Below, in pieces: positions 8,442 to 58,832 of a stretch of DNA of 58,832 bases. The notes below the pieces were generated by a model, which saw only the letters and a list, made by a program, of their open reading frames with translations, was not told the DNA's origin and did no database searches. The stretch is from a bacterium (GTDB taxonomy: Bacteria; Patescibacteriota; UBA1384; JBDRDK01), in contig JBDRDK010000001.1 of NCBI GenBank assembly GCA_043820855.1, positions 1 through 58,832 on the forward strand. Reading direction: 5' to 3'. The position numbers and the translations under genes are program-made. Position 1 is the stretch's first letter. Each line of letters opens with the position of its first letter.

Positions 8442-9743
8442 TTATTTTTTATAATTTGGCAACGTTGAAATACCTGCAAAAGCTGATTTTTCTGTTAGTT
8501 CAATCTCTATCTGGAGAAGTCTATTATATTTCGCAATTCTTTCGCTTCGTGTAAGAGAACCAGTTTTGATCTGTCCACATCCTATACCAACTGCTAAATC
8601 TGCAATATAAGTATCTTCAGTTTCACCCGACCTATGAGAAATTATTTGAGAATAACGGTTTTCTGTGGCGATCTCTACTGTTTTTAATGTTTCAGTTAAA
8701 GTACCTATCTGATTAGTTTTAATTAATATTGAATTTGCTATATTTTGTGTAATTCCAAAATTAAGTTTTGCTGGATTTGTAGCAAATATATCATCTCCTA
8801 CTATTTGCACCTTGTTTTTTAATTCATTTGTTATGTCTTCCCAGCCATTTTTGTCATCTTCGGATAGGGGATCTTCAAGTGAAATAATTGGAAATGCTTT
8901 TAATAATTCACGGTACATATTTATCATCCCGTCAGTATTTAGTGTTTGGGTACCCCTCTCAAATAAATAATTGCCATCTTTATAAAAAGTATTTGCTGCT
9001 ACATCCAAAGCTAAATAAATATCCTTTCCAGGTATTAATTTGGTATCTTCTATTGCTTGCATGATTAAAACAAAAGCTTCTTTATTGGAGGCTAGATTTG
9101 GTGAGAATCCGCCCTCATCACCGACCCCAGTAGGTAGATTCTGATTTTTTAGTAATTCATGTAGCGCGTTAAATACTCTTGATCCCCACTCCAAAGCTTG
9201 GTTGAAACTGCTAGCCCCACCAGGAATTATCATGTATTCCTGAATATCTAAATTATTGTCTGCATGAACCCCGCCGTTAATAATATTCATCATTGGTGTT
9301 GGAATAAGGAAGTCTGATACTTTTTTACCAAGTTTTAAGGAAAGATATTTGTATAGTGGTATATCTAAACTGTTTGCCGCAGCTCTACTAACAGCCAGAG
9401 ATACAGACAATATTGCATTTGCACCGAGACGTGATTTATTTTTAGTATTATCAAGCTCTATCATTATCTGATCAATTTTACTTTGCTCTTCGATATCTAC
9501 GCCCTGTAATATTCGAGCTATTTTTTGGTTTACATTGTTTACAGCTTTTTTTACTCCTTTACCGGAATATCGACTGTTGTCTCCATCTCTAAGCTCTAAA
9601 GCTTCTTCTTTACCTTTTGATGCACCAGAAGGTACCATGGCTATACCCGATATATCATCATCACACATTACTGTGGTTTCTAATGTTGGTACACCACGAG
9701 AATCTAAAACCTCTCGGGATTTAATAGTTTTTATTTTACTCAC
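8442..9743 (-). CDS. eno: enolase (phosphopyruvate hydratase)
   Basis: MSKIKTIKSREVLDSRGVPTLE..., SGETEDT, IKTGSLTRSERIAKYNRLLQIE; typical 433 aa. Confidence 0.95.
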   Translation of the reverse strand: MSKIKTIKSREVLDSRGVPTLETTVMCDDDISGIAMVPSGASKGKEEALELRDGDNSRYSGKGVKKAVNNVNQKIARILQGVDIEEQSKIDQIMIELDNTKNKSRLGANAILSVSLAVSRAAANSLDIPLYKYLSLKLGKKVSDFLIPTPMMNIINGGVHADNNLDIQEYMIIPGGASSFNQALEWGSRVFNALHELLKNQNLPTGVGDEGGFSPNLASNKEAFVLIMQAIEDTKLIPGKDIYLALDVAANTFYKDGNYLFERGTQTLNTDGMINMYRELLKAFPIISLEDPLSEDDKNGWEDITNELKNKVQIVGDDIFATNPAKLNFGITQNIANSILIKTNQIGTLTETLKTVEIATENRYSQIISHRSGETEDTYIADLAVGIGCGQIKTGSLTRSERIAKYNRLLQIEIELTEKSAFAGISTLPNYKK

Positions 9744-10809
9744 TACTCTTCTCCTTTATTGTGGTTTTTAGTTTATTGATTATATCAACGGGATATGGAT
9801 CGCACGCGTTTAAGATTGCTAAATAATAACTGACTAGGTCGCCTAAGTAAATCAGGGCTGTAGCTTCAACTAGCGGCGAATCGGACACAAAGTCAGCAGA
9901 AATTACCTCTATAGATATTTGTTTGGATTTGAGGGTTTTTTGAAAAAATTCCTGACGCAGCTTAGATTTGGGATGATTTAATTTGGATTGCAGTATAATA
10001 AAAGCCAACTTATCTTTTAATTCTGTTGGAAAATCTAAGCCGACAAGACTATTATGGCTTGATTCTGGTATTATTTCAGCGTATGCAGCAGATTTAGCAT
10101 TTTCATTTACCTGGGTTTTCCATCTTACAGCAACGCTTTCCAAAAATTCAGTGCCGTAAATTATCGGAATTTTGCCATATAGTTTTTGAGCTAGCTTTTT
10201 TGCACGATTTTTTGGGGCTGGAACGTCTCGGTTAAGTTTAATGTGTTGATTTTTCAACATAGAGAGTGTGGTATTTAGATCTTGTTCAGCGATATCAATA
10301 ATATTTAATTTTTTTAAAATTCCAATTACTGATATTAATAAATAACCTAGAGCAGCTCTAGGTGGAGATTTATAAGCAAAACGATAATAAGGTACCCGAT
10401 ATTTTAATGCTAATTTTTCCAACTCCCCGCCCGTAGTAACAGCCACTAACTTTGCGCCTCGTTTGTAAGCTTCAACAAAACCATCAGTAACTTCTTCGGT
10501 GTTGCCGGAATAGCTTATAGCAATAACTAATGTTCTGTCATCTACAAATTCTGGAATTCCATAATTATGGTGAGTGTGTATGGGTATTTCACTGGTTTTT
10601 AGTGTAAGACCTCGGGCTAGCTCGCCGCCAATACCTGATCCACCCATACCAAGTATTATTACTTTATTGGCTTTTAAGTAATATGAAGGCAATACTAATC
10701 TATTGATTTCTGTCCATGTATTTTCAAATTGGTCGGGTAGTTCACTAATATTTTTGTATAGATCCGAGGGATCTAATTGTTTGTATATACTTAAATCATC
10801 AAGATTCAT
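9736..10809 (-). CDS. bifunctional phosphoglucose/phosphomannose isomerase (SIS-domain PGI/PMI family)
   Basis: SIS motif ILGMGGSGIGGE, ISYSGNTEE; about 350 aa, typical of the short archaeal/bacterial PGI/PMI family; SD CAGGAG before the ATG; 8-nt overlap with eno. Confidence 0.8.
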   Translation of the reverse strand: MNLDDLSIYKQLDPSDLYKNISELPDQFENTWTEINRLVLPSYYLKANKVIILGMGGSGIGGELARGLTLKTSEIPIHTHHNYGIPEFVDDRTLVIAISYSGNTEEVTDGFVEAYKRGAKLVAVTTGGELEKLALKYRVPYYRFAYKSPPRAALGYLLISVIGILKKLNIIDIAEQDLNTTLSMLKNQHIKLNRDVPAPKNRAKKLAQKLYGKIPIIYGTEFLESVAVRWKTQVNENAKSAAYAEIIPESSHNSLVGLDFPTELKDKLAFIILQSKLNHPKSKLRQEFFQKTLKSKQISIEVISADFVSDSPLVEATALIYLGDLVSYYLAILNACDPYPVDIINKLKTTIKEKSSE

Positions 10810-41737: not shown

Positions 41738-44260
41738 ATGGATGTAGGAAATATTATAAATTTGGTAGGCATAGGATTATTACTAATTGCGGGAGTGATA
41801 ATTATCTTCACTATGAGTAAATTTCTTAAATCATACCTTTTACAAAAAAAAGAAACTAAGAAATTTCAAGACCGAACTCTGTTTTTAGTTCAAGTCCCTA
41901 AATATTCTGGTACAAAAGAAGAACAAAACACAAGTAGTCGCGACCTGTCAATATTATGGACTGGCGTTATGGAACAGTTTTTATCAAGTGTTACTGGAAT
42001 ATATGAAGGAGATTGGCAACATGCTATATGGGGACAAGAATATGTCAGCCTGGAGATAGTATCTAAAGGAGGTCAAATAAGTTTTTATGTATCTTGTCCA
42101 GGGCATTTATCGTCTTTAATTGAAAAACAAATTCACAGCTTTTTTCATGGAGCACAAGTAGAAAAAGCACCCAACTACAATTTATTTGACAAAATTAATC
42201 CAGCAAATTATCTAAACCATACTACTTCTGCACAACTCGGGCTTGCCCGATCATTTATTTATCCGATTCGTACCTACAAAGACCTTGATCACGATTCATT
42301 AAATAATATTACAACCGCCTTAAGTAAATTGGGTAAAGACTCGAGCGCTGCTATCCAAATGATGATCCGTCCCAGTGTATCAAAGTGGCAGAAACAATGT
42401 GAAGAGAAAATTAAAAGTATATATGAAGACAAAAAAACTACCGGGATACAAAATATCGTTAAAGAAGTGGGACAAGCTGCTTTTAACCCACAAAAAAGCG
42501 ATAGCAAGTCTGATATCAAGGCCCCGCCCACAATAACTGCCAACAAAGAACAAGAGATTAATCTAATTCAAAAAAAAGCTTCAAAGGTTGGTTTTGATAC
42601 CAAGATACGTTTACTTGTTGTATCTAATGATTTGAACTTAGCCAAGTCCAACTTACAAAATCTATTAAGTTCATACGCCCAATTCACTGACCAAGGGGGG
42701 AACCGATTACAAAAATTAAAGTATCCTTTCCGCAACGTTCAAACTGAGGTATTTGACTTTGTACTTAGAAGGTTTGGTAATCCTAACTTTGCCACAATAT
42801 TAAACACTGAGGAATTGGCAACCCTTTATCATTTCCCAAACAAAAATATTGCAACTCCTAACATAAAATGGTTGGCTGCAAAAACTGCAGCTGCTCCAGT
42901 AAACACACCAACAGAGGGTAGATTGCTTGGTGAAAATATTTATCGTGGGGAAAAACAAAAGGTTTACATAAAGGATGCGGATCGGTTACGACATTTATAC
43001 TGCATAGGTAAAACCGGTGTAGGTAAAACTACTTTATTTACAAATATGATTATTGACGACATTGTTGAAGGAAAGGGTGTATGTTATATCGATCCACACG
43101 GTGATGCAGCAGAAACCATCTTGCAAAACATCCCTAAAGAACGGGCTGAGGATGTTATTTATTTTGATCCTGGTGACACTTCTAGACCTATGGGATTAAA
43201 TTTACTCGAGTATCAAAAACCCGAACAAAAAGATTTTTTAGTACAAGAAGCTACTTCAATTTTCTATAAATTATTTGATCCAAATAAAACTGGTATTGTG
43301 GGACCACAGTTTGAACACTGGTTAAGAAATGCAGCATTAACACTCATGTCCTATCCAGAAGGCGGAACATTAATAGAAATTCCTAGATTGTTTACTGATA
43401 AAAAATTTGAACAAGAACGGTTAAAACACGTTCGAGATCCAATGGTACGTGCTTTTTGGGAAAAACAGCTAAAACAAACTTCTGATTTCCATAAATCAGA
43501 AATGCTTAATTATTTTGTTTCGAAATTCGGTCGATTCATGACAAATAATATGATGCGTAATATTATCGGACAGACCAAATCAGCGTTTGATTTCCGTGAA
43601 GTTATGGATTCCGGAAAAATATTAATCCTTAATTTATCCAAAGGTAAGTTAGGCGAAGTTAATGCTGAACTCCTCGGTCTAATCACTGTAGCAAAATTAG
43701 CTATGGCTGCTTATTCACGAGCAGATATTCCCGAAGATCAAAGAAAACCGTTTTATCTGTATGTAGATGAATTCCAAAACTTTACTACATCTGACTTTTC
43801 TTCAATTTTATCCGAAGCAAGAAAATACCAACTATCTTTAAATATCACCAATCAGTACATAGAACAGTTAGATGAAAAAATTAGAAATGCAGTCTTTGGC
43901 AATGTGGGCAGTATTATCTCTTTCCGTATAGGCGTAAGAGATGCTGAATTCCTCGAAAAAGAATTTACCCCTGTCTTTAGTCAAGAGGATCTAGTTGACA
44001 TAGACAAATATAATGCATATATTAAGTTATTAATTGACGGTGCTGCATCTAGTCCTTTTAGTATCAAAACTATCGCACCCAAACCCCCACAGTCACAACA
44101 AATTTACGAGGCCATTCAAAAAATTTCTAAATTAAAGTATGGGAAAAATCAACAAACAGTAGATGAAGAAATTAGAAAGAGATCAGCAATAGAACAGGTT
44201 GTCAAAGAGTTTGGATCAAGTAGTTTATCCAAGGAACCAACACCTAACCAACAACAATAA
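41738..44260 (+). CDS. membrane-anchored VirD4/TraD/TrwB-like (type IV coupling protein-like) P-loop NTPase, paralog 1
   Basis: N-terminal TM (aa 5-25), then a module of about 380 aa of unknown function. Walker A GKTGVGKTT (43008-43031) followed by IDPHGD. Walker B FYLYVDEFQNF. EARKYQLSLNITNQY...GNVGSIISFR, TraG-D_C-like. Confidence 0.8.
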   Translation: MDVGNIINLVGIGLLLIAGVIIIFTMSKFLKSYLLQKKETKKFQDRTLFLVQVPKYSGTKEEQNTSSRDLSILWTGVMEQFLSSVTGIYEGDWQHAIWGQEYVSLEIVSKGGQISFYVSCPGHLSSLIEKQIHSFFHGAQVEKAPNYNLFDKINPANYLNHTTSAQLGLARSFIYPIRTYKDLDHDSLNNITTALSKLGKDSSAAIQMMIRPSVSKWQKQCEEKIKSIYEDKKTTGIQNIVKEVGQAAFNPQKSDSKSDIKAPPTITANKEQEINLIQKKASKVGFDTKIRLLVVSNDLNLAKSNLQNLLSSYAQFTDQGGNRLQKLKYPFRNVQTEVFDFVLRRFGNPNFATILNTEELATLYHFPNKNIATPNIKWLAAKTAAAPVNTPTEGRLLGENIYRGEKQKVYIKDADRLRHLYCIGKTGVGKTTLFTNMIIDDIVEGKGVCYIDPHGDAAETILQNIPKERAEDVIYFDPGDTSRPMGLNLLEYQKPEQKDFLVQEATSIFYKLFDPNKTGIVGPQFEHWLRNAALTLMSYPEGGTLIEIPRLFTDKKFEQERLKHVRDPMVRAFWEKQLKQTSDFHKSEMLNYFVSKFGRFMTNNMMRNIIGQTKSAFDFREVMDSGKILILNLSKGKLGEVNAELLGLITVAKLAMAAYSRADIPEDQRKPFYLYVDEFQNFTTSDFSSILSEARKYQLSLNITNQYIEQLDEKIRNAVFGNVGSIISFRIGVRDAEFLEKEFTPVFSQEDLVDIDKYNAYIKLLIDGAASSPFSIKTIAPKPPQSQQIYEAIQKISKLKYGKNQQTVDEEIRKRSAIEQVVKEFGSSSLSKEPTPNQQQ

Positions 44261-44265
44261 ATAAC

Positions 44266-46926
44266 ATGACAAATTATTTAGGATTATTACCAACAATTAT
44301 AATTACCCTGGCTCTTGTAGTCGGATCTTTATCTTTGAGTTATTTTCTGCAAGTTAAAAAAAGCAGACAAGCCCTGAAAACAAAGAAATATAGCTTACTG
44401 ATGATTTCGGTTCCAAGAGAAAACGAAAAATCAGCACTCGCTGCTGAACAAGTATTTGCTAGTTTACATGGAATATTTCGCGACCCAGAACAATTAAAGA
44501 AAAGCGGGGATATTCAAGAGTGGTTAAGTTTTGAGGTGGTCTCATATCAACAACACATAGAATTTTATGTATATACTCCTGAAGAATACAAGGAATTTGT
44601 AGAAGGACAGATATTTGCACAATACCCAAATATCGATATCAGAGAAGTAAAAGATGATTATACTCATCGAATAAAACAAGATAAAGTATTTGGTACAGCA
44701 GAACTTGTATTAAATAAAAATGAGATTTTTCCAATCAAAACTTTTACTGATTTTGAAGTCGATCCACTGGCGGGTATTACAGCAGCGATGAGTAAAATTC
44801 AAAGCGGTGAACAAGCCTGGATGCAAATATTGTTAAAACCAGTTGAAGATGATTGGCAGAATAAAGGTATAAAATATGTTGAAGCTGTTAAGGCTGGGAA
44901 AAATCCCAAACCACCTATGTTTTTTGAAGGATTACTTAGTTCGTTTACAGATTTTGGGAAAGATTTAGTCCAAGCTGCGATAAATCCAGAAAAAGCCGCT
45001 GAACCAGCCAAAGAAAAAGAAACTCCGAAATTATCAGGACCAGTTGATTCGGGATTGGCAGGAATTGAAGAAAAGATAACCAAACTAGGTTATAAAACAA
45101 TAGTTAGGCTGTTTATTATTTCAGATAGTGAATTCAAAATTCAAAATCGGGTCTTAGCTATAGCTGGATCTTTTAAACAATTTAACCTAAGTAACTCTAA
45201 CGGATTTAAGGTAGAAAATTTCAGTATTAATAATATAAATGAATTTCAAAATTATCAATTACGATTATTTAATAAAGACGGTTATGTATTGAATATTACT
45301 GAGCTTGCTAGCTTATATCACTTTCCGCATGTTTCTGTAGAAACCCCACATATAAGTTGGACTGGTTCGAAAAAGGGAGAGCCACCAGGCAACTTACCCA
45401 CACAGGAAAATACTCGGGCAGATGAACTAACGATTTTTGCCAAAACCGATTTTCGTGGTACTGGTACAGAATTTGGAATAAAAGCTGATGATCGCAGAAG
45501 ACATATATATACTATAGGTAAAACTGGAACAGGAAAATCTACAATGCTAGTAAATATGATTATGTCAGATATTTACGCAGGAAAAGGCGTAGGCGTGGTA
45601 GATCCGCACGGAGACCTAATTGATGATTTATTGGACTACATACCAAAAGAGCGTCACAAAGATGTACTATTATTTGATCCTGCTGATCGTAAATATCCAG
45701 TAGGTTTTAATTTGTTAGAAAGCGTTGATCCGGATATGAAAAGCATTGTAGCTTCGGGACTGATCGGAATTTTCAAAAAGATTTGGGTAGATTCTTGGGG
45801 TCCAAGATTAGAATACATACTACGAAATACTATACTTGCATTGCTAGATTATCCTGGGTCCACAATGCTTGGAATACTAAAGATGCTTTCAGATCCTAAT
45901 TTTCGGGCCCGGGTAGTTGAAAAAATCAAAGATCCAGTAATTAAAGATTTTTGGGAAAAGGAATTTGAAGGATATACGGATAGTTTTAGAGCAGAAGCCA
46001 TCAACCCAATACAAAATAAAGTTGGTCAGTTTCTGTCTTCGGCCACTATTAGAAACATACTAGGACAAGAACAGAGCAGTTTTACTATGTCTGATGTTTT
46101 AGATAATCAGAAAATATTCTTAATAAATTTATCTAAAGGCAAAATGGGTGAGGACAACAGTGCTCTACTTGGCGCTATGATAATTACCAAGATACAACTT
46201 ACTGCAATGCAAAGAGTATATACCCCCGAAAAAGAACGTAAAGACTTTTATTTGTATGTGGATGAGTTTCAGAACTTTGCAACAGAAGCTTTTTCTGGGA
46301 TACTATCCGAAGCTCGCAAATATCGCCTTAACATTATACTAGCAAACCAATATATAGCCCAAATCCCAGAAGCAGTACGTGAAGCGATTTTCGGAAATAT
46401 AGGTACACTGATCGCTTTCAGGGTTGGTCCTTCTGATGTGGATATGCTCACCAAGGAGTTCAGCCCAGTTTTTGATGAAAACGATCTAGTTAATCTAGAT
46501 AAATATAATACATATGTAAAAATGGCTATCGACGGAGTAACAAGCCCCGCGTTTTCTGCTATAACATTACCCCCCTTTGCTAGTAGAACTGCTTCAAAGG
46601 ATATCGTAATAAAACAGTCAAGAGATAAATTTTCAAAAGAAAAAGAGACAGTTGAAAAACAGATCGTTGATTGGAGTCAAAAAGAAAGTTTACCTCCAGC
46701 TTCACTAATAGCTAAAATTCAAAAAAAAGACCAGGAAAAAGAAAATAAAACCGAGATAAAACAATTCGAAAAAATCGGTAAAAACGAATACCGCAGATTC
46801 AAAGATTCTACTGAAAAAGGTTGGTACATCCAGGTAGAACCACACGAAAGTCGTATAAAACAAGAACAAGTAAATATATCTACCAATACTGACTCATCTA
46901 TATTAGAAAAAATATTAAAAAACTAA
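44266..46926 (+). CDS. membrane-anchored VirD4/TraD/TrwB-like P-loop NTPase, paralog 2
   Basis: Same architecture as paralog 1: TM, N-module, GKTGTGKST (45517-45540), VDPHGD, FYLYVDEFQNF, EARKYRLNIILANQY...GNIGTLIAFR, plus a K/E-rich tail. Confidence 0.8.
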   Translation: MTNYLGLLPTIIITLALVVGSLSLSYFLQVKKSRQALKTKKYSLLMISVPRENEKSALAAEQVFASLHGIFRDPEQLKKSGDIQEWLSFEVVSYQQHIEFYVYTPEEYKEFVEGQIFAQYPNIDIREVKDDYTHRIKQDKVFGTAELVLNKNEIFPIKTFTDFEVDPLAGITAAMSKIQSGEQAWMQILLKPVEDDWQNKGIKYVEAVKAGKNPKPPMFFEGLLSSFTDFGKDLVQAAINPEKAAEPAKEKETPKLSGPVDSGLAGIEEKITKLGYKTIVRLFIISDSEFKIQNRVLAIAGSFKQFNLSNSNGFKVENFSINNINEFQNYQLRLFNKDGYVLNITELASLYHFPHVSVETPHISWTGSKKGEPPGNLPTQENTRADELTIFAKTDFRGTGTEFGIKADDRRRHIYTIGKTGTGKSTMLVNMIMSDIYAGKGVGVVDPHGDLIDDLLDYIPKERHKDVLLFDPADRKYPVGFNLLESVDPDMKSIVASGLIGIFKKIWVDSWGPRLEYILRNTILALLDYPGSTMLGILKMLSDPNFRARVVEKIKDPVIKDFWEKEFEGYTDSFRAEAINPIQNKVGQFLSSATIRNILGQEQSSFTMSDVLDNQKIFLINLSKGKMGEDNSALLGAMIITKIQLTAMQRVYTPEKERKDFYLYVDEFQNFATEAFSGILSEARKYRLNIILANQYIAQIPEAVREAIFGNIGTLIAFRVGPSDVDMLTKEFSPVFDENDLVNLDKYNTYVKMAIDGVTSPAFSAITLPPFASRTASKDIVIKQSRDKFSKEKETVEKQIVDWSQKESLPPASLIAKIQKKDQEKENKTEIKQFEKIGKNEYRRFKDSTEKGWYIQVEPHESRIKQEQVNISTNTDSSILEKILKN

Positions 46927-47564: not shown

Positions 47565-47922
47565 TTTATATATTACATTTTTGAATTTCATAGGCGTATT
47601 AGGTTGGATATGTGTTTTATTTCTAGTTTTCTTTCTATCTCCCTACAGCAACATTCAACAGAATTTAACGTTATTTCTATTTAGTTTTTTTATCGCTGTA
47701 TGGGGATCCTATAGTTCTTTAGAGTATAATTTACGAAAAAAAATGTTCAGTTTAACAAACCCAATGTCCCAATTAAAGGATGCATCTAGGCATGGCTTGT
47801 TTATTGCCTTGGTACTCACTGTCATACTTTTTTTGCAGTATTTGAGAGTTTTAACATGGTGGGACGCAGGTCTTTTAGTGTTAATAGCTGTCAGCGCTGA
47901 ACTTTATTTTAAAGGAAGATAA
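47554..47922 (+). CDS. membrane protein (4 TM)
   Basis: Hydrophobic 122 aa; overlaps the rbfA end; ATG at 47554 (the track uses TTG at 47551). Confidence 0.55.
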   Translation: MNLSLYITFLNFIGVLGWICVLFLVFFLSPYSNIQQNLTLFLFSFFIAVWGSYSSLEYNLRKKMFSLTNPMSQLKDASRHGLFIALVLTVILFLQYLRVLTWWDAGLLVLIAVSAELYFKGR

Positions 47923-48635
47923 TGGCAAACTTACACCCAATCACACAATTTATGAGAAAGTCACTAGATTTTTTTCAAAAAAAAGGATTTGAAATAGTAG
48001 ATACACCGGAAATAGAAACCGAATATTACAATTTTGATTCTTTGAATATACCAGCTACTCATCCATCACGAGATACTCAAGATACTTTTTGGCTTAAGGA
48101 TGGTAGAGTTTTAAGAACCCATACTACAAGTGCTCAAGTAAGAGAAATGGAAAAACGCAAACCACCAGTAAGAATTGTGGCGCCTGGAAGATGTTTTCGA
48201 AATGAACGAACTGATGCTGGTCATGAAGCAACTTTTTTCCAGTTAGATGGATTTGTAATTGATCGTGATATTCGAGTCAATCATTTACTAACTATAACTG
48301 ACGATTTTGCAAAACATATTTTTGGTAAAGATATAAAAACTCGCATCCGTCCCCATTTTTATCCATTTGTTGAACCAGGATTTGATATTGATATAAATTG
48401 TTTGATATGTGCTGGTAAGGGTTGCCCTGTGTGCAAAAAATCCGGGTGGTTAGAAGTAATGCCCTGTGGCATGATTCATCCAACAGTTCTAAAAAATATG
48501 AAAATCGATTCAGAAAAATGGAGTGGTTTTGCTTTTGGTTTTGGGATAGACAGGTTGATGATGCTTTATCACGGAATAGATGATATCCGATTTTCTTATA
48601 AAAACGATTTTAGATTTTTAAAACAATTCAAATGA
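47922..48635 (+). CDS. pheS: phenylalanine-tRNA ligase alpha subunit, catalytic core only
   Basis: HPITQF, PATHPSRDTQDTFW, LRTHTSAQ, PGRCFRNE, FFQLDG, GWLEVMPCGMIHP, FGFGIDRL. It is 237 aa versus the usual length of about 330-350 aa. Confidence 0.92.
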   Translation: MANLHPITQFMRKSLDFFQKKGFEIVDTPEIETEYYNFDSLNIPATHPSRDTQDTFWLKDGRVLRTHTTSAQVREMEKRKPPVRIVAPGRCFRNERTDAGHEATFFQLDGFVIDRDIRVNHLLTITDDFAKHIFGKDIKTRIRPHFYPFVEPGFDIDINCLICAGKGCPVCKKSGWLEVMPCGMIHPTVLKNMKIDSEKWSGFAFGFGIDRLMMLYHGIDDIRFSYKNDFRFLKQFK

Positions 48636-50515
48636 ACCTACCCGTTAAATGGTTAAAACAATTTATCAATACAAATGATTCTGTTCAAAAAATAGCTGAG
48701 ATTTTTACTAGTATAGGTCATGAAGTGGAGTCGTACAACAGTACTGTACTTAATTTGGATATTACACCCAATCGCAGTGATTGTTTCAGCATACTTGGAT
48801 TAGCTAGGGAATATGCGGCAGCTACAAACAAAAAGCTAACCTCTCAACAAAAACCACAAATCCCAGAAACTCAAACTTCAACTTTAAAACTAAAATTCCT
48901 TAAAAAATCAATATGTCCCAGATATACATACAGAATTATTGAACATATAAAGATACAACCTTCACCCAAATGGCTACAAAATCATTTGATCAAATACGGT
49001 TTTAGACCGATAAATAATATCGTAGATATTACTAACTTTGTAATGATTGAACTTGGCCAACCTCTACACGCGTTTGATTATTCTAAAGTTTCGGGTTCGA
49101 GTATGGAAATATGTCTATCCAAAAAGGGTCAGAGTTTAACAACACTAGACGGAAAAAACTGTGATCTTCCGGACAGTGCAATTATTATTAAAGATGCTAA
49201 TAAAATCATTGATTTAGCTGGAATAATGGGTGGTTATAATTCTGAAGTGGACAACAACACCCAATCTATAGTCCTGCAAGCAGCAGTTTTTAATCCAACG
49301 TTAATCAGAAAAGCTAGTAAAGCTCTAAAACACATTACCGACGCTTCGTATCGTTATGAAAGAGGTGTAGACCCGCAAAATACAACCTTTGCCCTAGATC
49401 GCGCTGTTGAATTATTACTAGAAAGTTGTCCCAATATATCCGTAGGTCCTATACAGGATATAAAGAACGAACCCATAAAAACTATAAGCATCCCGTTTAA
49501 TACTCAGAAAATTAATAAATTTTTATCAACGAATCTATCAAATAATCAGATCGATAAAATTTTAACATCTTTAGGTTTTAAGATAACTAAAAACTCCATA
49601 CTAGTGCCTTCTTGGAGAATCTATGATGTTAAAAATATACAAGACATAGTTGAAGAGGTGGGTAGAATTCACGGCTACAATAAACTAAAGAGAATCGAAC
49701 TATCTAAGTTCAAGAATACAAAGATAAATAAACAATATTTATCACTCGAATTACTCAAAGACAAACTTGTAGCACGGGGGTATACTGAAATCATTGGATA
49801 TCCGATGACAGCTGATAAAAACCCGATTCGTATAATAAACCCTGTTTCTATGGAAAATCAGTACTTAAGAAGCACTCTAACTGAATCGCTATTAAGGGTT
49901 GTTAGTAACAATCCATGGTATGCAGATATTAAAAGTTTTGAGTTGGGAAAGGTTTATCTAAAAAAGTCAGAGTTATATAATCTCGCGATACTTGAAACTA
50001 GTAAATCAACAAAAAATATCATTCAAAATTTACAGACAATAGAAAAAGAATTGGGCAGTAAATTAGATTACCAAGAAATAAAAGTTTCTCAAAATGATTT
50101 AGATAAACACAAAATAAAAAAATCAGTTAGTTTAATCAACGTTCAATTACCTAAATTTAATAATTCGATTAAATGGGAATCAATAAATATCCCCAAAAAA
50201 CGAGTGAAATACCAAAGTATTTCTAAATTTCCACCCTCAACTAGAGATCTAGCATTTATAGTAAACACGAAAATAAACGCCTTGGACATCTCCTTTGATA
50301 TACAGAAGATAAGCACAAGTGATGCTTGGGTAGTTATTGTAGAAAAGTTTGATGAATTTGAACATAAAAAATTCGGTCAAGGCAAGAAAAACTTGGCTTT
50401 TCATGTAGTTGTTGACCGTAAGAAAAAAATCACTGAAAATCAAATTAATTCCATATTCAGTAAAATTATTGATACAATAGAAAAGAAATATAAAGCTAAA
50501 TTACGGGAATTTTAA
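48632..50515 (+). CDS. pheT: phenylalanine-tRNA ligase beta subunit lacking the OB-fold (B2) tRNA-binding domain
   Basis: The N-terminal B1 domain (MNLPVKWLKQFI) runs straight into the DITPNRSDCFSILGLAREYA (B3/4) block; B5 and the C-terminal FDX-ACB-like end are present. Confidence 0.9.
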   Translation: MNLPVKWLKQFINTNDSVQKIAEIFTSIGHEVESYNSTVLNLDITPNRSDCFSILGLAREYAAATNKKLTSQQKPQIPETQTSTLKLKFLKKSICPRYTYRIIEHIKIQPSPKWLQNHLIKYGFRPINNIVDITNFVMIELGQPLHAFDYSKVSGSSMEICLSKKGQSLTTLDGKNCDLPDSAIIIKDANKIIDLAGIMGGYNSEVDNNTQSIVLQAAVFNPTLIRKASKALKHITDASYRYERGVDPQNTTFALDRAVELLLESCPNISVGPIQDIKNEPIKTISIPFNTQKINKFLSTNLSNNQIDKILTSLGFKITKNSILVPSWRIYDVKNIQDIVEEVGRIHGYNKLKRIELSKFKNTKINKQYLSLELLKDKLVARGYTEIIGYPMTADKNPIRIINPVSMENQYLRSTLTESLLRVVSNNPWYADIKSFELGKVYLKKSELYNLAILETSKSTKNIIQNLQTIEKELGSKLDYQEIKVSQNDLDKHKIKKSVSLINVQLPKFNNSIKWESINIPKKRVKYQSISKFPPSTRDLAFIVNTKINALDISFDIQKISTSDAWVVIVEKFDEFEHKKFGQGKKNLAFHVVVDRKKKITENQINSIFSKIIDTIEKKYKAKLREF

Positions 50516-50516
50516 T

Positions 50517-51911
50517 ATGCAAAGATATTATGCAAAAGATTTAAATAAGTCAGTAGGAAAAGAAGTGCTGTTATTTGGTTGGGTTCACAGTAGGAGAGAT
50601 CATGGGAATTTGATTTTTGTAGACCTGAGAGATATGAGCGGACTTACACAAATAGTTATTGATCCAAAAACTTACAAAAACCTCAAGGAAGTAAAAAAAA
50701 TACGACCTGAATATGTAGTTCAAATCAGAGGTTTAGTAAAATCACGTCCGGAAAAATACTTCAATCAAAAAATTATATCTGGAGAAATTGAAATTGAATG
50801 TACTGAAATAAAAATTATAAATACTTCAAAAACACCGCCCTTTGAGATAAATCAAGATACTCTAAAAATCGATGAAGAAAAAAGACTTGAATACAGATAT
50901 TTGGATTTACGCACAACAAGACTATCTACTAACATTAAAAACAGACACGGTATTGTTAATTTCATCAGAAATCAACTCAATAAAAAAGGATTTGTCGAAA
51001 TTGAAACTCCAATTCTTACTAAAGGTACACCTGAGGGGGCACGAGAATATATTGTGCCTAGTAGATTACAAAAAGGCAAAGTTTATGTTCTGCCTCAGTC
51101 TCCTCAACAATTCAAGCAATTACTAATGATCGCTGGTTTTGAAAGATATTATCAAATTGCAAAATGTCTGCGTGATGAGGACACCAGGGGAGATCGTCAA
51201 CCCGAACATACTCAACTAGACTTAGAAATGAGTTTTATTGAGCAAAATAACATTTTAGAATTAATAGAAGAATTAATAATTAATTTAATATCGTCTTTAT
51301 ATCCTGACAAAAAAATTACCCAAAAACCGTTTCCAAGATTGACCTACGAACAAGCTATAAAACAATATAAATCAGATAAACCTGACTTGAGAAAAAACAA
51401 AAAAGATCAAAACGAGTTAGCATTTAGCTGGATTATTGACTTCCCGCTATTTAAAAAAGACAAAAATGGGAAATTGACATATTCCCACAATCCATTTACT
51501 TCACCTAAGAAACAATTTGAAGACGACCTACTAAAAAACAAAGATGTCTCTTGTATTATTTCTGAACAATACGATTTAGCGTGTAACGGTCTGGAAATAG
51601 GCGGTGGGGGAATAAGGATACACAAATCAGAAATACTATTTAAAGTTTTTCAAATACTAGGTCATGACAAAAAAACTATCGAAGATAGATTTGGTCATAT
51701 GTTGAAAGCGTTTGAATACGGAACTCCACCTCACGGAGGTATAGCTCTGGGTTTGGACCGATTAATTATGCTTTTGCAAAACGAACCAAATATTCGAGAA
51801 GTTATCTCTTTTCCAAAAACAGGCGATGCTCGAGACCCATTAATGAATGCACCAACTATTCCTGATCCATTAGATTTGAAAGAGTTGGGAATTAGGTTTT
51901 CTAAAAAATAA
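50517..51911 (+). CDS. aspS: aspartate-tRNA ligase, bacterial-type sequence but without the GAD insertion domain
   Basis: LRDMSGLTQIV, YVLPQSPQQFKQLLMIAGFERYYQIAKCLRDEDTRGDRQPEHTQLDLEMSF, GGGGIRIH, GTPPHGGIALGLDRL. DKPDLRK is followed almost directly by WIIDFPLF. Confidence 0.92.
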   Translation: MQRYYAKDLNKSVGKEVLLFGWVHSRRDHGNLIFVDLRDMSGLTQIVIDPKTYKNLKEVKKIRPEYVVQIRGLVKSRPEKYFNQKIISGEIEIECTEIKIINTSKTPPFEINQDTLKIDEEKRLEYRYLDLRTTRLSTNIKNRHGIVNFIRNQLNKKGFVEIETPILTKGTPEGAREYIVPSRLQKGKVYVLPQSPQQFKQLLMIAGFERYYQIAKCLRDEDTRGDRQPEHTQLDLEMSFIEQNNILELIEELIINLISSLYPDKKITQKPFPRLTYEQAIKQYKSDKPDLRKNKKDQNELAFSWIIDFPLFKKDKNGKLTYSHNPFTSPKKQFEDDLLKNKDVSCIISEQYDLACNGLEIGGGGIRIHKSEILFKVFQILGHDKKTIEDRFGHMLKAFEYGTPPHGGIALGLDRLIMLLQNEPNIREVISFPKTGDARDPLMNAPTIPDPLDLKELGIRFSKK

Positions 51912-56858: not shown

Positions 56859-58832
56859 TTATATCACGATATTTAAAATCTTGGAAGGGATATATATGTG
56901 CTTTTTGATCTTTTTGTTTTTTAAATATTTTGTTACGTTTTTTTCTTTTTGTGCAAGCTCAAGTACTTCTTTTTCTGTATAGGTAGTTGGCACAATAATT
57001 TTTCCTCTTATTTTACCATTCACCTGAATTACTACTAGACCCTCTTTTTCTTTTTGAATTTTACCGATTTCGGGCCATTTTTGTTCATATACATGACCAC
57101 CAAAATCTAATTCATCCCAAAGTTCGGAAGATAAATGCGGAGCAAAAGGGAAAAGAATTATAAGAAAATCTTTTAAACTATCTCGATCAATCCCAATTTT
57201 ATATATTTGGTTCACATATTCCATCATTGAACTTATTGCTGTATTGAATCGCAAATTTTCTATGTCATTTGTTACTTTTTGAATTGTTTTATCCAAATCA
57301 ACTCGAGACTTAAGTTTGTTGGTGATTTTTTGATCAATTTGCCAAACTCGATCCAAAAATCTTTTTATTCCAATAATACCCTTAGTATCCCAAGGTGCAG
57401 CATCTTCCAGTGGACCTATAAACATTTCGTACATTCGAAGAGTATCAGCTCCATACTTTACAATAATTTTATCTGGATTTATTACATTACCAAGAGATTT
57501 CGACATCTTACGTCCATCTTGAGCTAAAACCAAACCCTGATTACGCAATTTCAAAAATGGTTCATCAAACTCTATGTATCCCATATCTTTCAAAGCTTTA
57601 ATCATAAACCTAGAATAAAGTAAATGCATTACTGCGTGCTCAGCACCACCAATATAAAGGTCTACAGGCAGCCATTTCTTTATCTTGTCTTTGCTAAACG
57701 GTTGTTTGGTATTTTGTGGATCAGTATATCTTAAAAAATACCAGGAAGAATCAACAAAAGTATCCATAGTATCGTTTTCTCGCTTTGCATTACCGCCACA
57801 TTTTGGACATTTCACACTGTAAAAACTTTTAGATTTTGCAAGAGGGGACTCACCAGTAGGTAGAAAGTCTACATCATCAGGTAATTCAACTGGCAGATCT
57901 TTTTCCGGCACTGGAATAGTCGTATATTCTTTCCCATCAATAACAACTTCATTAATTTTGATTTTTGATTTTTGATTTTTGATTTCCCAACATTTACGAC
58001 AGTAAATGATGGGTATTGGCGCACCCCAATATCTTTGCCTTGAGATTAACCAATCCCGCAATTTATACTGAGTTTGTAGTTTGGAATTTGGAATTTGGCT
58101 AATAATTTTTTTGGCATCACGAGGCCACTCTAAACCATTTAATTTTCCCGAATTAATAATAATCCCATTTCCAACATAATAATCATATCCGCTATTAATC
58201 CAAAATAACCAAAGATCAAGTTCAGAACAATTAAAATTATTTGGATTTATATTTTCGAGATCTAACCAAGTAACTTTATGTTTCTCTTTTTCTTCTTTAG
58301 AAATATTATCTTGTTCTTCATTTATTAATTCAAATAAAATCGCAGTTGCATAAGCTTTTCTATTTTCATTTTTATGGGCGGCATAATATTCGGCTTGAAC
58401 TTCAATTCCGAGTTTTCGGATAAGCTTCAAGTTTTTATAACCAGTTTCTTCGAGTACTTCTCTTTTTGCCGCTGTAATAATATTTTCATTTTTATTAACC
58501 CCGCCGACTATGAAAGTAGTCCAGGGCTGCTTTTTCCAATTTAAACAAAGAAATTTTCCAGTTTTTGGATTACGTACTATGGCTTGGATAGTTTTTCTTT
58601 CTATAGTTTTTTTGTTTTTAATTGGTGGATTTTTTACGTCAATCCTACAAGGCATAATTACTGGTTTGATAGACAATCCGTACTTTTTTGCAAACAAGTA
58701 ATCCCGTTCATCGTGCGCAGGTACGCACATAATTGCGCCAGTGCCATAAGAAGATAACACGTAATCTGAAACCCAAATTGGCATCTCTCCAGCTGTTAGG
58801 GGATTGATCGCTTTTATTCCTTTTAATTCAAC
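56859..58832 (-). CDS. leuS: leucine-tRNA ligase, C-terminal about two-thirds (continues past the right window edge)
   Basis: The frame is open to nt 58832 (VELKGIKAINPLTAGEMPIW...). YGTGAIMCVPAHDERDYLFAKKYGL, RDWLISRQRYWGAPIP, CPKCGG..RENDTMDTFVDSSWYFLRY, GGAEHAVMHLLYSRF, KMSKS. Confidence 0.93.
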   Translation of the reverse strand, partial: VELKGIKAINPLTAGEMPIWVSDYVLSSYGTGAIMCVPAHDERDYLFAKKYGLSIKPVIMPCRIDVKNPPIKNKKTIERKTIQAIVRNPKTGKFLCLNWKKQPWTTFIVGGVNKNENIITAAKREVLEETGYKNLKLIRKLGIEVQAEYYAAHKNENRKAYATAILFELINEEQDNISKEEKEKHKVTWLDLENINPNNFNCSELDLWLFWINSGYDYYVGNGIIINSGKLNGLEWPRDAKKIISQIPNSKLQTQYKLRDWLISRQRYWGAPIPIIYCRKCWEIKNQKSKIKINEVVIDGKEYTTIPVPEKDLPVELPDDVDFLPTGESPLAKSKSFYSVKCPKCGGNAKRENDTMDTFVDSSWYFLRYTDPQNTKQPFSKDKIKKWLPVDLYIGGAEHAVMHLLYSRFMIKALKDMGYIEFDEPFLKLRNQGLVLAQDGRKMSKSLGNVINPDKIIVKYGADTLRMYEMFIGPLEDAAPWDTKGIIGIKRFLDRVWQIDQKITNKLKSRVDLDKTIQKVTNDIENLRFNTAISSMMEYVNQIYKIGIDRDSLKDFLIILFPFAPHLSSELWDELDFGGHVYEQKWPEIGKIQKEKEGLVVIQVNGKIRGKIIVPTTYTEKEVLELAQKEKNVTKYLKNKKIKKHIYIPSKILNIVI
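58176..58655 (-). other. NUDIX hydrolase domain inserted within LeuRS
   Basis: A perfect Nudix box GGVNKNENIITAAKREVLEETGY (GX5EX7REUXEEXGU) lies at 58437-58505, inside an insert of about 160 aa between KPVI and NSGKLNGL. Confidence 0.75.

Follow-up and report, generated by a model that had tools for sequence, protein, structure and literature searches.

A Nudix hydrolase domain nested within the editing domain of a bacterial-type leucyl-tRNA synthetase

Aminoacyl-tRNA synthetases (aaRSs) are, to our knowledge, among the most conserved enzymes, and new catalytic domains in their cores are rare. Two precedents are useful for judging the architecture considered here. One is NadM-Nudix, in which the Nudix part is attached terminally and its substrate logic (NAD/ADPR) is understood. 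It joins a HIGH-motif NMN adenylyltransferase to an ADP-ribose pyrophosphatase (PMC7824862) and is a precedent for the pairing of a HIGH-superfamily nucleotidyltransferase with a Nudix domain. The other is an IleRS that bears a GNAT domain (NCBIfam NF040702), i.e., a class Ia synthetase with an extra catalytic domain. The protein described below, a leucyl-tRNA synthetase (LeuRS), differs from NadM-Nudix in that its Nudix domain sits inside the editing domain of the synthetase; the model NF003786, which belongs to the NadM-Nudix precedent, matches this domain weakly.

At the place where the LeuRS of our window has a Nudix domain of 158 residues, the solved LeuRSs have a loop of 13. The bacterial structures in question are those from T. 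thermophilus (Tt; 1H3N/2BTE), E. coli (4AQ7/4ARC), and N. gonorrhoeae (7NU8), against which the predicted structure of a full-length homologue of the window protein gives target-normalised TM values of 0.78-0.83 at 32-36% identity, and with which the window protein shares KMSKS, the editing Asp of the AHD motif, and the anticodon-binding and C-terminal domains. The PDB searches returned no LeuRS structure with a Nudix domain, and the LeuRS-Nudix architecture is covered by neither an NCBIfam nor a Pfam model. The original prediction, made from the letters of the sequence, knew of no description of it, and we found none in the full-text literature, whose coverage stops short of most subscription journals, so that this counts as absence of evidence only.

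The window, i.e., the whole stretch of DNA analysed (58,832 nucleotides), holds at its end the 3′ part of leuS, the gene of this bacterial-type LeuRS, on the minus strand (56859..58832). The frame is open from the window edge at 58832 to the stop at 56859-56861 and has 657 codons plus the stop; the 5′ end of the gene, with about 290 N-terminal residues of the protein, lies beyond the window. Pfam finds tRNA-synt_1_2, tRNA-synt_1, and Anticodon_1 in the fragment, and phmmer aligns it to T. thermophilus LeuRS with an E-value of 4e-117. Its score against the NCBIfam model TIGR00396 (leuS_bact), 529.5 bits, is under the cut-off of 548.4 because the fragment is truncated, and the full-length homologue P0002, which is 67% identical, reaches 994.8 bits.

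Several functional elements of the synthetase fall within the window. The segment of the CP1 editing domain directly upstream of the insert (58656..58832, minus; PF13603, fragment residues 4-73, profile positions 85-153 of 185) carries the editing-site motif VPAHDERD, with AHDERD at 58701-58718 (minus) and the editing Asp present. The KMSKS catalytic loop of the class I synthetic site, aligned to LeuRS structures, is at 57495..57509 (minus), and the anticodon-binding domain spans 56973..57296 (minus; PF08264, E 3e-18, fragment residues 513-620). The HIGH and TTRPDT motifs belong to the part outside the window; HIGH reads HVGH in the full-length homologues P0002 and P0004, and the full-length homologues inspected have HIGH, KMSKS, the editing motif TTRPDT, and the Asp of AHD, with the Asp, the Thr-Thr, and the Lys-Met invariant in the homologue alignment (A3). 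Nothing in the window protein corresponds to residues 582-635 of T. thermophilus LeuRS, the region of the leucine-specific domain. By every hallmark, leuS appears to encode a functional LeuRS of the bacterial type, its host being a member of the Patescibacteria (CPR).

The inserted domain is 160 residues long (MPCRID...YDYYV), comprises fragment residues 60-219, and is encoded by exactly 58655-58176 (58176..58655, minus), in keeping with the approximately 160 extra residues originally predicted at this position. In the alignment to T. thermophilus LeuRS (1h3n), fragment residues 5-60 correspond to Tt 308-363 and residues 219-439 to Tt 377-581; the insert takes the place of Tt 364-376, i.e., about 158 residues stand in place of a loop of 13 in the CP1 editing domain. 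Its entry point, at PF13603 profile position ~146-153 of 185, is likewise inside CP1. The original prediction had set a complete Nudix domain into a LeuRS of the bacterial type, with the AHD..KPVI block on one side and the NSG..NGL block on the other, where E. coli-type LeuRS was said to have a short linker. Sequence, profile, fold, and comparative evidence all uphold this placement; the segment is not a neutral inter-domain linker but part of the editing domain itself. The spacing between the AHD and NGL blocks is 53 residues in P0061, a close relative without the insert, versus 196 in the window LeuRS; in place of the insert, P0061 has a loop of roughly 19 residues. The junctions read KPVI/MPCR and YDYYV/GNG, and past the second one the editing domain resumes with IIINSGKLNGL (58131..58163, minus), which aligns to Tt LeuRS from residue 377. 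With a Nudix domain in a CP1 loop, the layout becomes that of a domain within a domain within a Rossmann fold.

The identity of the insert as a Nudix domain is supported at several levels. The Pfam NUDIX family PF00293 matches 58242..58592 (minus; fragment residues 81-197) with an E-value of 1.2e-11 and a score of 45.1 bits, for which the cut-off is 21.1, and the insert alone also matches significantly (E 1.8e-12, 47.8 bits), in agreement with its first assignment. The Nudix box, GGVNKNENIITAAKREVLEETGY, which would form the metal-binding and catalytic helix, lies at 58437..58505 (minus) and had been said to fit the consensus GX5EX7REUXEEXGU, as it does at all specified positions. When the six frames of the 58.8-kb window were searched with a relaxed form of the box, GX4-6[EQ]X8EX2EEXG, this was the sole match. 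Downstream of the box lies a family-specific motif, HKNENR (HKxxNR; 58359..58376, minus), which is conserved across the copies at site 2, one of several LeuRS positions discussed below, and which may serve in phosphate or base binding. It is preceded by an aromatic residue 17 positions past the box, a Tyr in the window.

The AlphaFold model of the insert, which is confident (pLDDT 95.6, pTM 0.89), predicts a Nudix fold, i.e., an alpha/beta/alpha sandwich whose helix 59-71 holds the Nudix box, and the flanks that the original prediction took for strand-like are strands in this model. A Foldseek search of the PDB with the model gave 489 matches at E<=0.001, of which the best 50 are all Nudix-family proteins, the top TM being 0.72. 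In the model of the full-length homologue (pLDDT 90.6, pTM 0.80), each 10-residue block over both junctions averages at least 89, and low-confidence linkers are absent.

In a metagenome assembly, a chimera or a frameshift fusion of two genes is possible a priori. Here the frame is continuous over both junctions, the insert (29.8% GC) is close in composition to the remaining gene (33.1%), and the same junctions are found in more than 100 independently assembled homologues (NCBI, JGI, ENA, Logan). In the survey of orthologs suggested with the original prediction, the 119 homologues nearest to this LeuRS, from many assemblies and at 41-67% identity, include 118 with PF00293; in 116 of them it lies at the site described here, and an insert of 140-175 residues occupies exactly this site in 117 of 120 sequences. 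Moreover, all 80 loci fetched from species genomes have the Nudix domain in LeuRS-sized ORFs, save where a contig ends. Because 116 of 119 homologues and 80 of 80 loci hold the domain at this position or in ORFs of this size, a mis-join is untenable, and we put its probability close to nil. Relatives of the family are present in at least 214 species-representative genomes, a lower bound because the scan used only two peptide patterns, derived from an alignment of seven close sequences. Judged by this distribution, the insert is old and mostly vertically inherited.

Two other origins of the insert were examined and set aside. Base composition gives no signal of foreign origin at the GC values quoted above, and an intein or another self-splicing or mobile insertion was rejected, there being no Hint or intein Pfam match and no splice-junction residues, for which an N-terminal Cys/Ser and a C-terminal His-Asn with Cys/Ser/Thr next to it would be expected.

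The complete Nudix domain nested in this LeuRS is, on comparative sequence grounds, very probably real, conserved, and catalytically intact. The strict Nudix box is found in 100 of 120 sequences. Among 195 site-2 copies, the Glu of the RE pair is kept in 193 and the two glutamates of the EE pair in 189 and 193; the Lys of HKxxNR is present in all 195, its Asn in 187, and its Arg in 175, while Phe, Tyr, or Trp stands at +17 past the box in 191. Since the metal-binding glutamates are so strongly conserved, the insert is predicted to be very likely active, apparently as a pyrophosphohydrolase. The opposite reading, in which the Nudix fold is a noncatalytic CP1 module for nucleotide sensing, regulation, structure, or tRNA binding, draws on a subclade with a degenerate box (16-17 of the 195 site-2 copies, in which Gx5E is changed to Q and the Arg is lost), on the tandem pairs at site 1, each made of one canonical and one degenerate copy, and on the rigid packing without flexible linkers predicted by the full-length homologue model. 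We consider this reading improbable, given that the three core glutamates are intact in 97-99% of the site-2 copies, the degenerate subclade included, and that free-standing members of the family keep the same motifs.

Which compound the domain would act on is suggested less clearly by its relatives. The nearest solved ones are RppH, the Ap4A/Ap6A hydrolases, NudB, and decapping enzymes, all at 15-21% identity, and the similarity to every characterised Nudix protein is essentially confined to the box. The PDB profile search and Foldseek return a mixture of RppH, ApnA hydrolases, NudB, MTH1, ADPRase, Dcp2, and DIPP, with NudI also among the Foldseek matches. E. coli RppH (4S2X/7SP3), human NUDT2 (4IJX), Ndx1 of T. 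thermophilus (1VC8), and E. coli NudB (2O1C) have the same alpha/beta/alpha fold and a canonical box; matches of RppH/NudH, the Ap4A/Ap6A-hydrolase group, and NudB have Foldseek E-values of about 1e-7 to 1e-6 and TM values of 0.55-0.72. Several features set the insert apart from this group: a separate HKxxNR motif, its place within another enzyme, and extensions at both termini, by which its two ends meet at the point of insertion. None of the NCBIfam Nudix equivalogs comes near its cut-off, the sub-threshold matches being to NudB, RppH, NadM-Nudix, NudE, and NudI; models for the RppH/ApnA-hydrolase group and NudB give 20-23 bits where 103-118 would be required, and the RppH models NF001938 and NF001936 give 23.1 bits versus 116 and 19.9 versus 118, respectively. 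An aromatic residue about 16-18 positions past the box is a criterion for RppH and the ApnA hydrolases, a lead rather than a proof, and the one at +17 in the insert is presumably comparable to Tyr77 of RppH and to its counterpart in NUDT2.

These relatives bear directly on the possibility that the domain is an RNA 5′-end pyrophosphohydrolase or decapping enzyme of the RppH/Dcp2 kind, which the synthetase would bring to tRNA or other RNA for removal of a 5′ triphosphate, an NAD cap, or an Np4N cap. The top sequence-profile match among solved structures is AvrM14 (PDB 8DP8/8DP9; E 1e-7), over the 109 residues 45-153, a stretch that includes Lys and Arg of HKxxNR; Dcp2 follows at about 1e-5, and E. 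coli RppH accounts for many of the best Foldseek matches. The residue that we take to correspond to Tyr77 of RppH points the same way, and tRNA is the sole ligand common to all the synthetases involved. The tRNA 5′ end also adjoins the 3′ end that is handled by CP1. AvrM14, a Nudix effector of flax rust, decaps mRNA in vitro (bioRxiv 10.1101/2023.11.14.566975), but it is a secreted, free-standing protein of a eukaryote that lacks any synthetase context, and the similarity to AvrM14 and Dcp2 is too low for substrate specificity to be transferred. On the other side, the profile-profile alignment to RppH (hhalign, with a provisional RppH sequence) covers just the 36 columns of the box; the RppH models score low, as given above; mature tRNA normally has a 5′ monophosphate after RNase P; and the varied LeuRS positions, the tandem copies, and a class II ProRS are hard to square with exact positioning at an RNA end. 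On balance, an RNA target seems unlikely to us, although it is the chief competitor of an Ap4A-type substrate.

The wider distribution of the family is informative in this respect. The insert belongs, by its motifs, to a distinct Nudix family of CPR genomes, characterised by HKxxNR and the aromatic residue at +17, and the same family is probably present in DPANN genomes too. Within LeuRS, its members occupy site 1 (before CP1), site 2, a position after CP1, and tandem arrangements, with one to three extra copies at these other positions, and one member lies within a ProRS, between the anticodon and C-terminal domains. Free-standing members are proteins of 160-200 residues with the same motifs as the inserts. 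Of ten examined, four directly adjoin an aaRS gene, i.e., those of ArgRS, ThrRS, an insert-bearing LeuRS, and an insert-less LeuRS; the sample is small, two of the four cases share synteny, and chance would account for such adjacency at about 5% by a rough estimate. A neighbor-joining tree of 111 domain copies, in which site-1, site-2, free, and ProRS copies are interleaved, was used just for the statement that copies are not cleanly separated by location, since it has no support values.

CPR synthetases also host domains unrelated to Nudix. Two LeuRS sites carry an alpha/beta serine hydrolase (Ser_hydrolase), an IleRS carries a histidine phosphatase (His_Phos_1), and an inserted nucleotidyltransferase is a possible further case.

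Another way of reading the family is as an active house-cleaning or salvage enzyme whose substrates would be (d)NTPs in excess or damaged, NDP-sugars, or compounds like them, with no link to aminoacylation, its fusion to an essential gene ensuring co-expression in a streamlined genome. The presence of the unrelated domains just listed is in its favour, as synthetases of these bacteria may simply tolerate passenger domains. So are the surroundings of the free copies, several of which lie near genes for dUTPase, Tmk/dNK, a PRK/uridine-kinase-type protein, YfbR (5′-nucleotidase), TatD, and HAD, and one of which follows Fpg/MutM in a context like that of the 8-oxoguanine (GO) repair system; MTH1, NudB, and NudI among the Foldseek matches fit as well. 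Against it stands the recurrence of the family with synthetases in several independent ways, i.e., at three or more LeuRS sites, in ProRS, and beside the four aaRS genes. The same loci also hold other, clearly different Nudix paralogues, which score 14-33 bits against the family profile where a true member scores 165, and such far lower scores indicate that the embedded family is not the generic Nudix enzyme of the cell. This explanation is, in our judgement, somewhat unlikely.

The reading that we tentatively put forward, as the likeliest of those considered though short of probable, is that of a tethered pyrophosphohydrolase for Ap4A-type nucleotides, coupled to the synthetase. The insert would hydrolyse a small nucleoside-polyphosphate compound, the likeliest substrates being dinucleoside polyphosphates of the Ap4A/Ap3A type, which arise as side products of aaRSs from the aminoacyl-adenylate and ATP. 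Cleavage beside the producing enzyme would return adenine nucleotides to the pool, in cells that, as CPR bacteria, are generally reported to be without de novo nucleotide synthesis, and leucylation and CP1 editing would be expected to proceed normally alongside. The LeuRS sites, the ProRS, and the aaRS adjacency link the family to aaRSs generally and not to the geometry of LeuRS, and with so many insertion geometries a diffusible substrate fits better than a fixed RNA end. The location of several further free copies near nucleotide-metabolism genes leans toward a small molecule, and the Ap4A/Ap6A hydrolases and RppH/NudH among the nearest solved relatives would be in accord with it. Conversely, the matches to AvrM14, Dcp2, and RppH favour an RNA 5′-end substrate about equally, no sequence motif points to one substrate, and ArgRS, one of the adjoining synthetases, is not known to make Ap4A, which counts against this reading. 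The unrelated domains inserted in CPR synthetases and the small adjacency sample also weigh against it. The original prediction had also named Ap4A-type compounds, an idea compatible with these findings.

That prediction had further mentioned proofreading, including the hydrolysis of Leu-AMP. Pre-transfer proofreading of a misactivated aminoacyl-adenylate by the Nudix domain finds its sole support in the location of the insert in the editing domain, and we regard it as very improbable. Nudix chemistry is directed at the pyrophosphate linkage of nucleoside diphosphate-X compounds, and an aminoacyl-AMP has none, so Leu-AMP hydrolysis is chemically unlikely; the CP1 editing residues are retained, which would leave the normal editing site intact; and the family is also found free-standing and in ProRS.

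Taken more broadly, the family may be a dedicated aaRS accessory enzyme of ultra-small CPR bacteria and DPANN-like archaea and thereby an aaRS catalytic module of a new class. It would have been recruited repeatedly and independently (at three or more LeuRS sites with one to three copies, in ProRS, and beside LeuRS, ThrRS, and ArgRS genes) and would act on a product or ligand common to all synthetases, either Ap4A-type by-products or a structure at the tRNA 5′ end. We consider this possible rather than probable; if true, translation would be tied directly to nucleotide economy or alarmone control in cells that reportedly do not make their own nucleotides. Should the clearance of Ap4A be its role, this would be a natural in-cis version of an aaRS/Ap4A/Nudix axis that we otherwise know only as separate proteins, and would illustrate how symbionts auxotrophic for nucleotides save on adenine nucleotides, while an RNA-end target would imply an unrecognised step of tRNA processing. 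Whatever the substrate, an essential synthetase has, in much of the CPR, a second and apparently active hydrolase within its proofreading domain, and the same Nudix family is joined to synthetases in several independent ways.

The insert may also be of practical use as a lineage marker for CPR LeuRS. Annotation pipelines call for caution, as such proteins are labelled only "class I tRNA ligase family protein". In public databases, LeuRS-Nudix proteins are abundant and appear just under this name or as "leucine--tRNA ligase". Many TPA assemblies carry an organism name ("Gammaproteobacteria", "Saccharibacteria", "Woesearchaeota") that seems at odds with the CPR-type relatives of their sequences, and these names were not relied on.

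The window ends inside a leucyl-tRNA synthetase (LeuRS) gene, leuS, whose frame is open on the minus strand from the window edge at 58832 to a stop codon at 56859-56861, giving 657 codons. Along this fragment, Pfam recognizes the LeuRS editing domain in its C-terminal half (residues 4-73; PF13603, from profile position 85 to 153 of 185), NUDIX at residues 81-197 (PF00293, E 1.2e-11; 45.1 bits, with the gathering score at 21.1) and, in addition, the latter half of the class I catalytic core and the anticodon-binding domain. Against the NCBIfam bacterial LeuRS equivalog the fragment scores 529.5 bits, slightly short of the cut-off of 548.4, as expected for a protein whose first 290 or so residues are off the window; the full-length homologue P0002, 67% identical, reaches 994.8 bits. 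The original prediction had placed a complete Nudix domain at 58176-58655, which corresponds exactly to fragment residues 60-219, and the significant profile match agrees with it. As it had also stated, the Nudix box GGVNKNENIITAAKREVLEETGY (58437-58505) matches GX5EX7REUXEEXGU at each specified position, and this box is the sole match to a relaxed form of the motif in the six-frame translation of the whole window.

Regarding the position of the domain, alignment to Thermus thermophilus LeuRS (1h3n) pairs fragment residues 5-60 with Tt 308-363 and residues 219-439 with Tt 377-581; therefore, about 158 residues stand in place of a 13-residue loop. The roughly 160 extra residues are where they had been predicted, but the site is not the linker then proposed: by this alignment it falls within the CP1 editing domain, so that the nesting is Nudix within CP1 within the Rossmann fold. 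In P0061, a homologue that has no insert (68% identical in the best local alignment, 66% of the query), the AHD-to-NGL spacing is 53 residues, versus 196 in the window LeuRS. Two further differences from the T. thermophilus enzyme are found in the fragment (56862-58832, minus strand; residues ~270-300 and 439-441), namely the absence of a segment equivalent to Tt 582-635, where the leucine-specific domain lies, and about 22 additional residues (CWEIKNQKSKIKINEVVIDGKEYTT) near the second zinc-binding Cys pair.

The architecture is widely conserved. A survey of the best LeuRS homologues among 5.8 billion proteins from NCBI, JGI, ENA and Logan assemblies found PF00293 in 118 of 119 (41-67% identity), and an insert of 140-175 residues occupies the site used by the window LeuRS in 117 of 120 sequences. 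Those that are named bear the labels Patescibacteria, or Wildermuth-, Pacei-, Gribaldo-, Yanofsky-, Moran- or Buchananbacteria. At all 80 fetched loci the domain lies inside a LeuRS-sized ORF, of at least 940 residues unless a contig end cuts it, and when each GTDB species was represented by one genome and scanned with just two peptide patterns specific to the family, at least 214 genomes proved to encode a relative. In the window itself, the reading frame is unbroken across both insert junctions, and the GC content is 29.8% in the insert and 33.1% in the remainder of the gene. The chimera or mis-join that the original prediction had named as its possible undoing is ruled out for practical purposes by the conservation across homologues and loci, the continuous frame and the similar GC, and the chance of an assembly artefact is negligible.

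Some records carrying a CPR-type LeuRS with the Nudix domain are titled Gammaproteobacteria, Pseudomonadota, Thermodesulfobacteriota, Fimivivens, Woesearchaeota or "archaeon" (loci L002, L007, L013, L016, L022, L024, L030, L035 and L050). These are probably mislabelled or mis-binned contigs, the alternative being real transfer outside CPR.

The strict Nudix box is kept in 100 of 120 sequences, and the other 20 either lack one residue or carry a degenerate form, with Gln for the Glu of Gx5E and no Arg. Among 195 copies at the CP1 site, the three core glutamates are kept in 193, 189 and 193, the HKxxNR motif retains its Lys in 195, Asn in 187 and Arg in 175, and Phe, Tyr or Trp lies 17 residues past the box in 191. 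An AlphaFold2 model built from an alignment of 32 inserts (pLDDT 95.6, pTM 0.89) has the expected strand-helix-strand sandwich, and Foldseek returned 489 PDB matches at E<=0.001, the best 50 of which are all Nudix-family proteins, in line with the fold first proposed. In the full-length model of P0002 (pLDDT 90.6, pTM 0.80), no 10-residue block over the insert and both junctions averages below 89; the prediction is thus of a packed domain, not one that hangs on flexible linkers. This model can be overlaid on bacterial LeuRS structures at TM 0.78-0.83, and none of the solved LeuRS structures returned by the search contains a Nudix-type domain. The full-length homologues inspected retain HIGH and KMSKS as well as the AHD Asp and the TTRPDT motif for editing, and the key residues are invariant in an alignment of 89 sequences; therefore, nothing in the sequences points to a loss of leucylation or editing. 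Judged by its residues and models, the insert looks catalytically competent and structurally integrated, and a non-catalytic domain is quite improbable.

The component parts of this protein are known and such proteins are deposited under generic names, and precomputed Pfam annotations already show the architecture. No Pfam or NCBIfam model describes it, unlike IleRS with a GNAT domain, which has an NCBIfam model, and full-text literature searches found no description. LeuRS-Nudix can be counted among synthetases that carry an additional catalytic domain; the more interesting lead is that a single Nudix family has been recruited to synthetases repeatedly in CPR, and probably in DPANN too.

Searched against 1.84 billion representative proteins, the insert profile matches 470 clusters at E<=1e-10, of which 167 reach E<=1e-30; most are LeuRS. 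Some LeuRSs have two or three copies, with one or a tandem two in the stretch that leads from the catalytic core into CP1 and sometimes one after CP1; the maximum of three occurs in a 1430-residue LeuRS and a 1559-residue ORF, and P0050 has two copies before CP1 and none within it. Pairs or triplets occur in the proteins P0050, P0051, P0121-P0124 and P0286 and at loci L027, L042 and L067. The tandem pairs appear to combine one canonical and one degenerate subtype; in a neighbor-joining tree, pair members divide into those with the canonical box and those with the GQ/no-Arg variant, an arrangement that can be likened to a built-in pseudo-heterodimer. In addition, the family includes real free-standing members (160-200 residues, on contigs of up to 540 kb) and a domain between the anticodon-binding and C-terminal domains of ProRS (five clusters, P0225 and P0289-P0292; locus L089, 5593-7524), whose nearest insert-free relatives are labelled Nanoarchaeota or Woesearchaeota. 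Copies from both LeuRS sites, free members and ProRS copies are interleaved in the same tree, which is without support values. Other Nudix genes at the same loci score 14-33 bits against the family profile, versus 165 for a true member; by these scores, therefore, the embedded family is a specialised paralogue and not the only Nudix of the cell.

Among the ten free-standing members whose neighbourhoods were inspected, four directly adjoin a synthetase gene: one lies 12 nt after ArgRS, one just before ThrRS, one 2 nt before a LeuRS that itself has the insert, and one 2 nt before a LeuRS with an uninterrupted editing domain. A fifth sits in a gene string between MetRS and LeuRS. Direct adjacency would be expected for roughly 5% of genes (about 20 synthetase genes among 700-900), and the observed 4/10, or 3/9 with the two syntenic LeuRS cases counted once, is suggestive in a small sample. 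Nucleotide-metabolism genes (dUTPase, Tmk/dNK, a PRK/uridine-kinase-type gene, YfbR, TatD, HAD and Fpg) occur around several of the other free members, and a free copy lies within ~1 kb downstream of leuS at 4 of 80 leuS loci.

Synthetases form Ap4A/Ap3A-type dinucleotides from aminoacyl-adenylate and ATP. The Nudix domain would be an active pyrophosphohydrolase acting on a small nucleoside-polyphosphate compound, most likely dinucleotides of this type, and would be held beside their source. We favour such a coupled hydrolase tentatively, at somewhat short of an even chance. The association with synthetases is general, spanning class I and class II and fused and adjacent genes, the varied insertion geometries and copy numbers are easier to reconcile with a substrate that diffuses than with a macromolecule in a fixed position, and the free copies have nucleotide-metabolism neighbours. 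Proofreading of Leu-AMP is very improbable. Against coupling, ArgRS is not known to produce Ap4A, and passengers unrelated to the Nudix are also found in CPR synthetases (a histidine phosphatase in an IleRS, and an alpha/beta serine hydrolase at either of two sites in LeuRS); a house-cleaning Nudix uncoupled from its host enzyme is possible, though doubtful. RNA-decapping enzymes are also among the best similarity matches: the nearest solved proteins by profile are the effector AvrM14 (E 1e-7), stated to have decapping activity (bioRxiv 10.1101/2023.11.14.566975), Ap4A hydrolases, NudB and Dcp2. By fold they are an Enterococcus faecalis MutT/Nudix protein, Escherichia coli RppH, NudB, MTH1 and Ap4A/Ap6A hydrolases, at 15-21% identity. 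The alignment with RppH spans just the box, and every curated NCBIfam Nudix model is far under its cut-off for the insert; therefore, by these comparisons, the insert is akin to the RppH/ApnA-hydrolase/NudB neighbourhood and outside every characterised subfamily. An enzyme acting on RNA 5' ends is unlikely.

Regarding other inserted domains, some CPR LeuRSs of ~1120-1150 residues (P0018, P0044, P0049, P0086, P0089) combine Nudix with the serine hydrolase (PF06821/PF12695/PF00561), which lies before CP1 in P0018 (residues 255-417) and after it in P0049 (residues 591-778), and P0035 has a weak nucleotidyltransferase-like match (PF10706) at the first of these sites. An IleRS-like protein of 1167 residues (L081 7386-10889, L082 7387-10890) has PF00300 His_Phos_1 listed between two tRNA-synt_1 matches; at these loci another Nudix gene follows it, and a free LeuRS-type Nudix member adjoins ArgRS. 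Insertion of hydrolase domains into class Ia synthetases may be a more general feature of CPR.

Elsewhere in the window, a plus-strand cluster of synthetase genes near leuS (47922-51911) has no member with an extra domain: it encodes PheRS beta (627 residues), a class II synthetase of the Asp/Asn type, and a PheRS alpha that is short, at 237 residues, and consists of the core domain alone. Two adjacent large paralogues on the plus strand (41738-44260 and 44266-46926; 840 and 886 residues) have weak TraG/VirD4/TrwB coupling-protein matches and may belong to machinery for type IV secretion or DNA uptake. Finally, three tandem paralogues of cofactor-independent phosphoglycerate mutase (3637-8439, minus strand; 538, 537 and 534 residues, iPGM_N plus Metalloenzyme) directly adjoin enolase and a bacterial-type phosphoglucose isomerase (8442-10809), a triplication that is unusual in a small genome.
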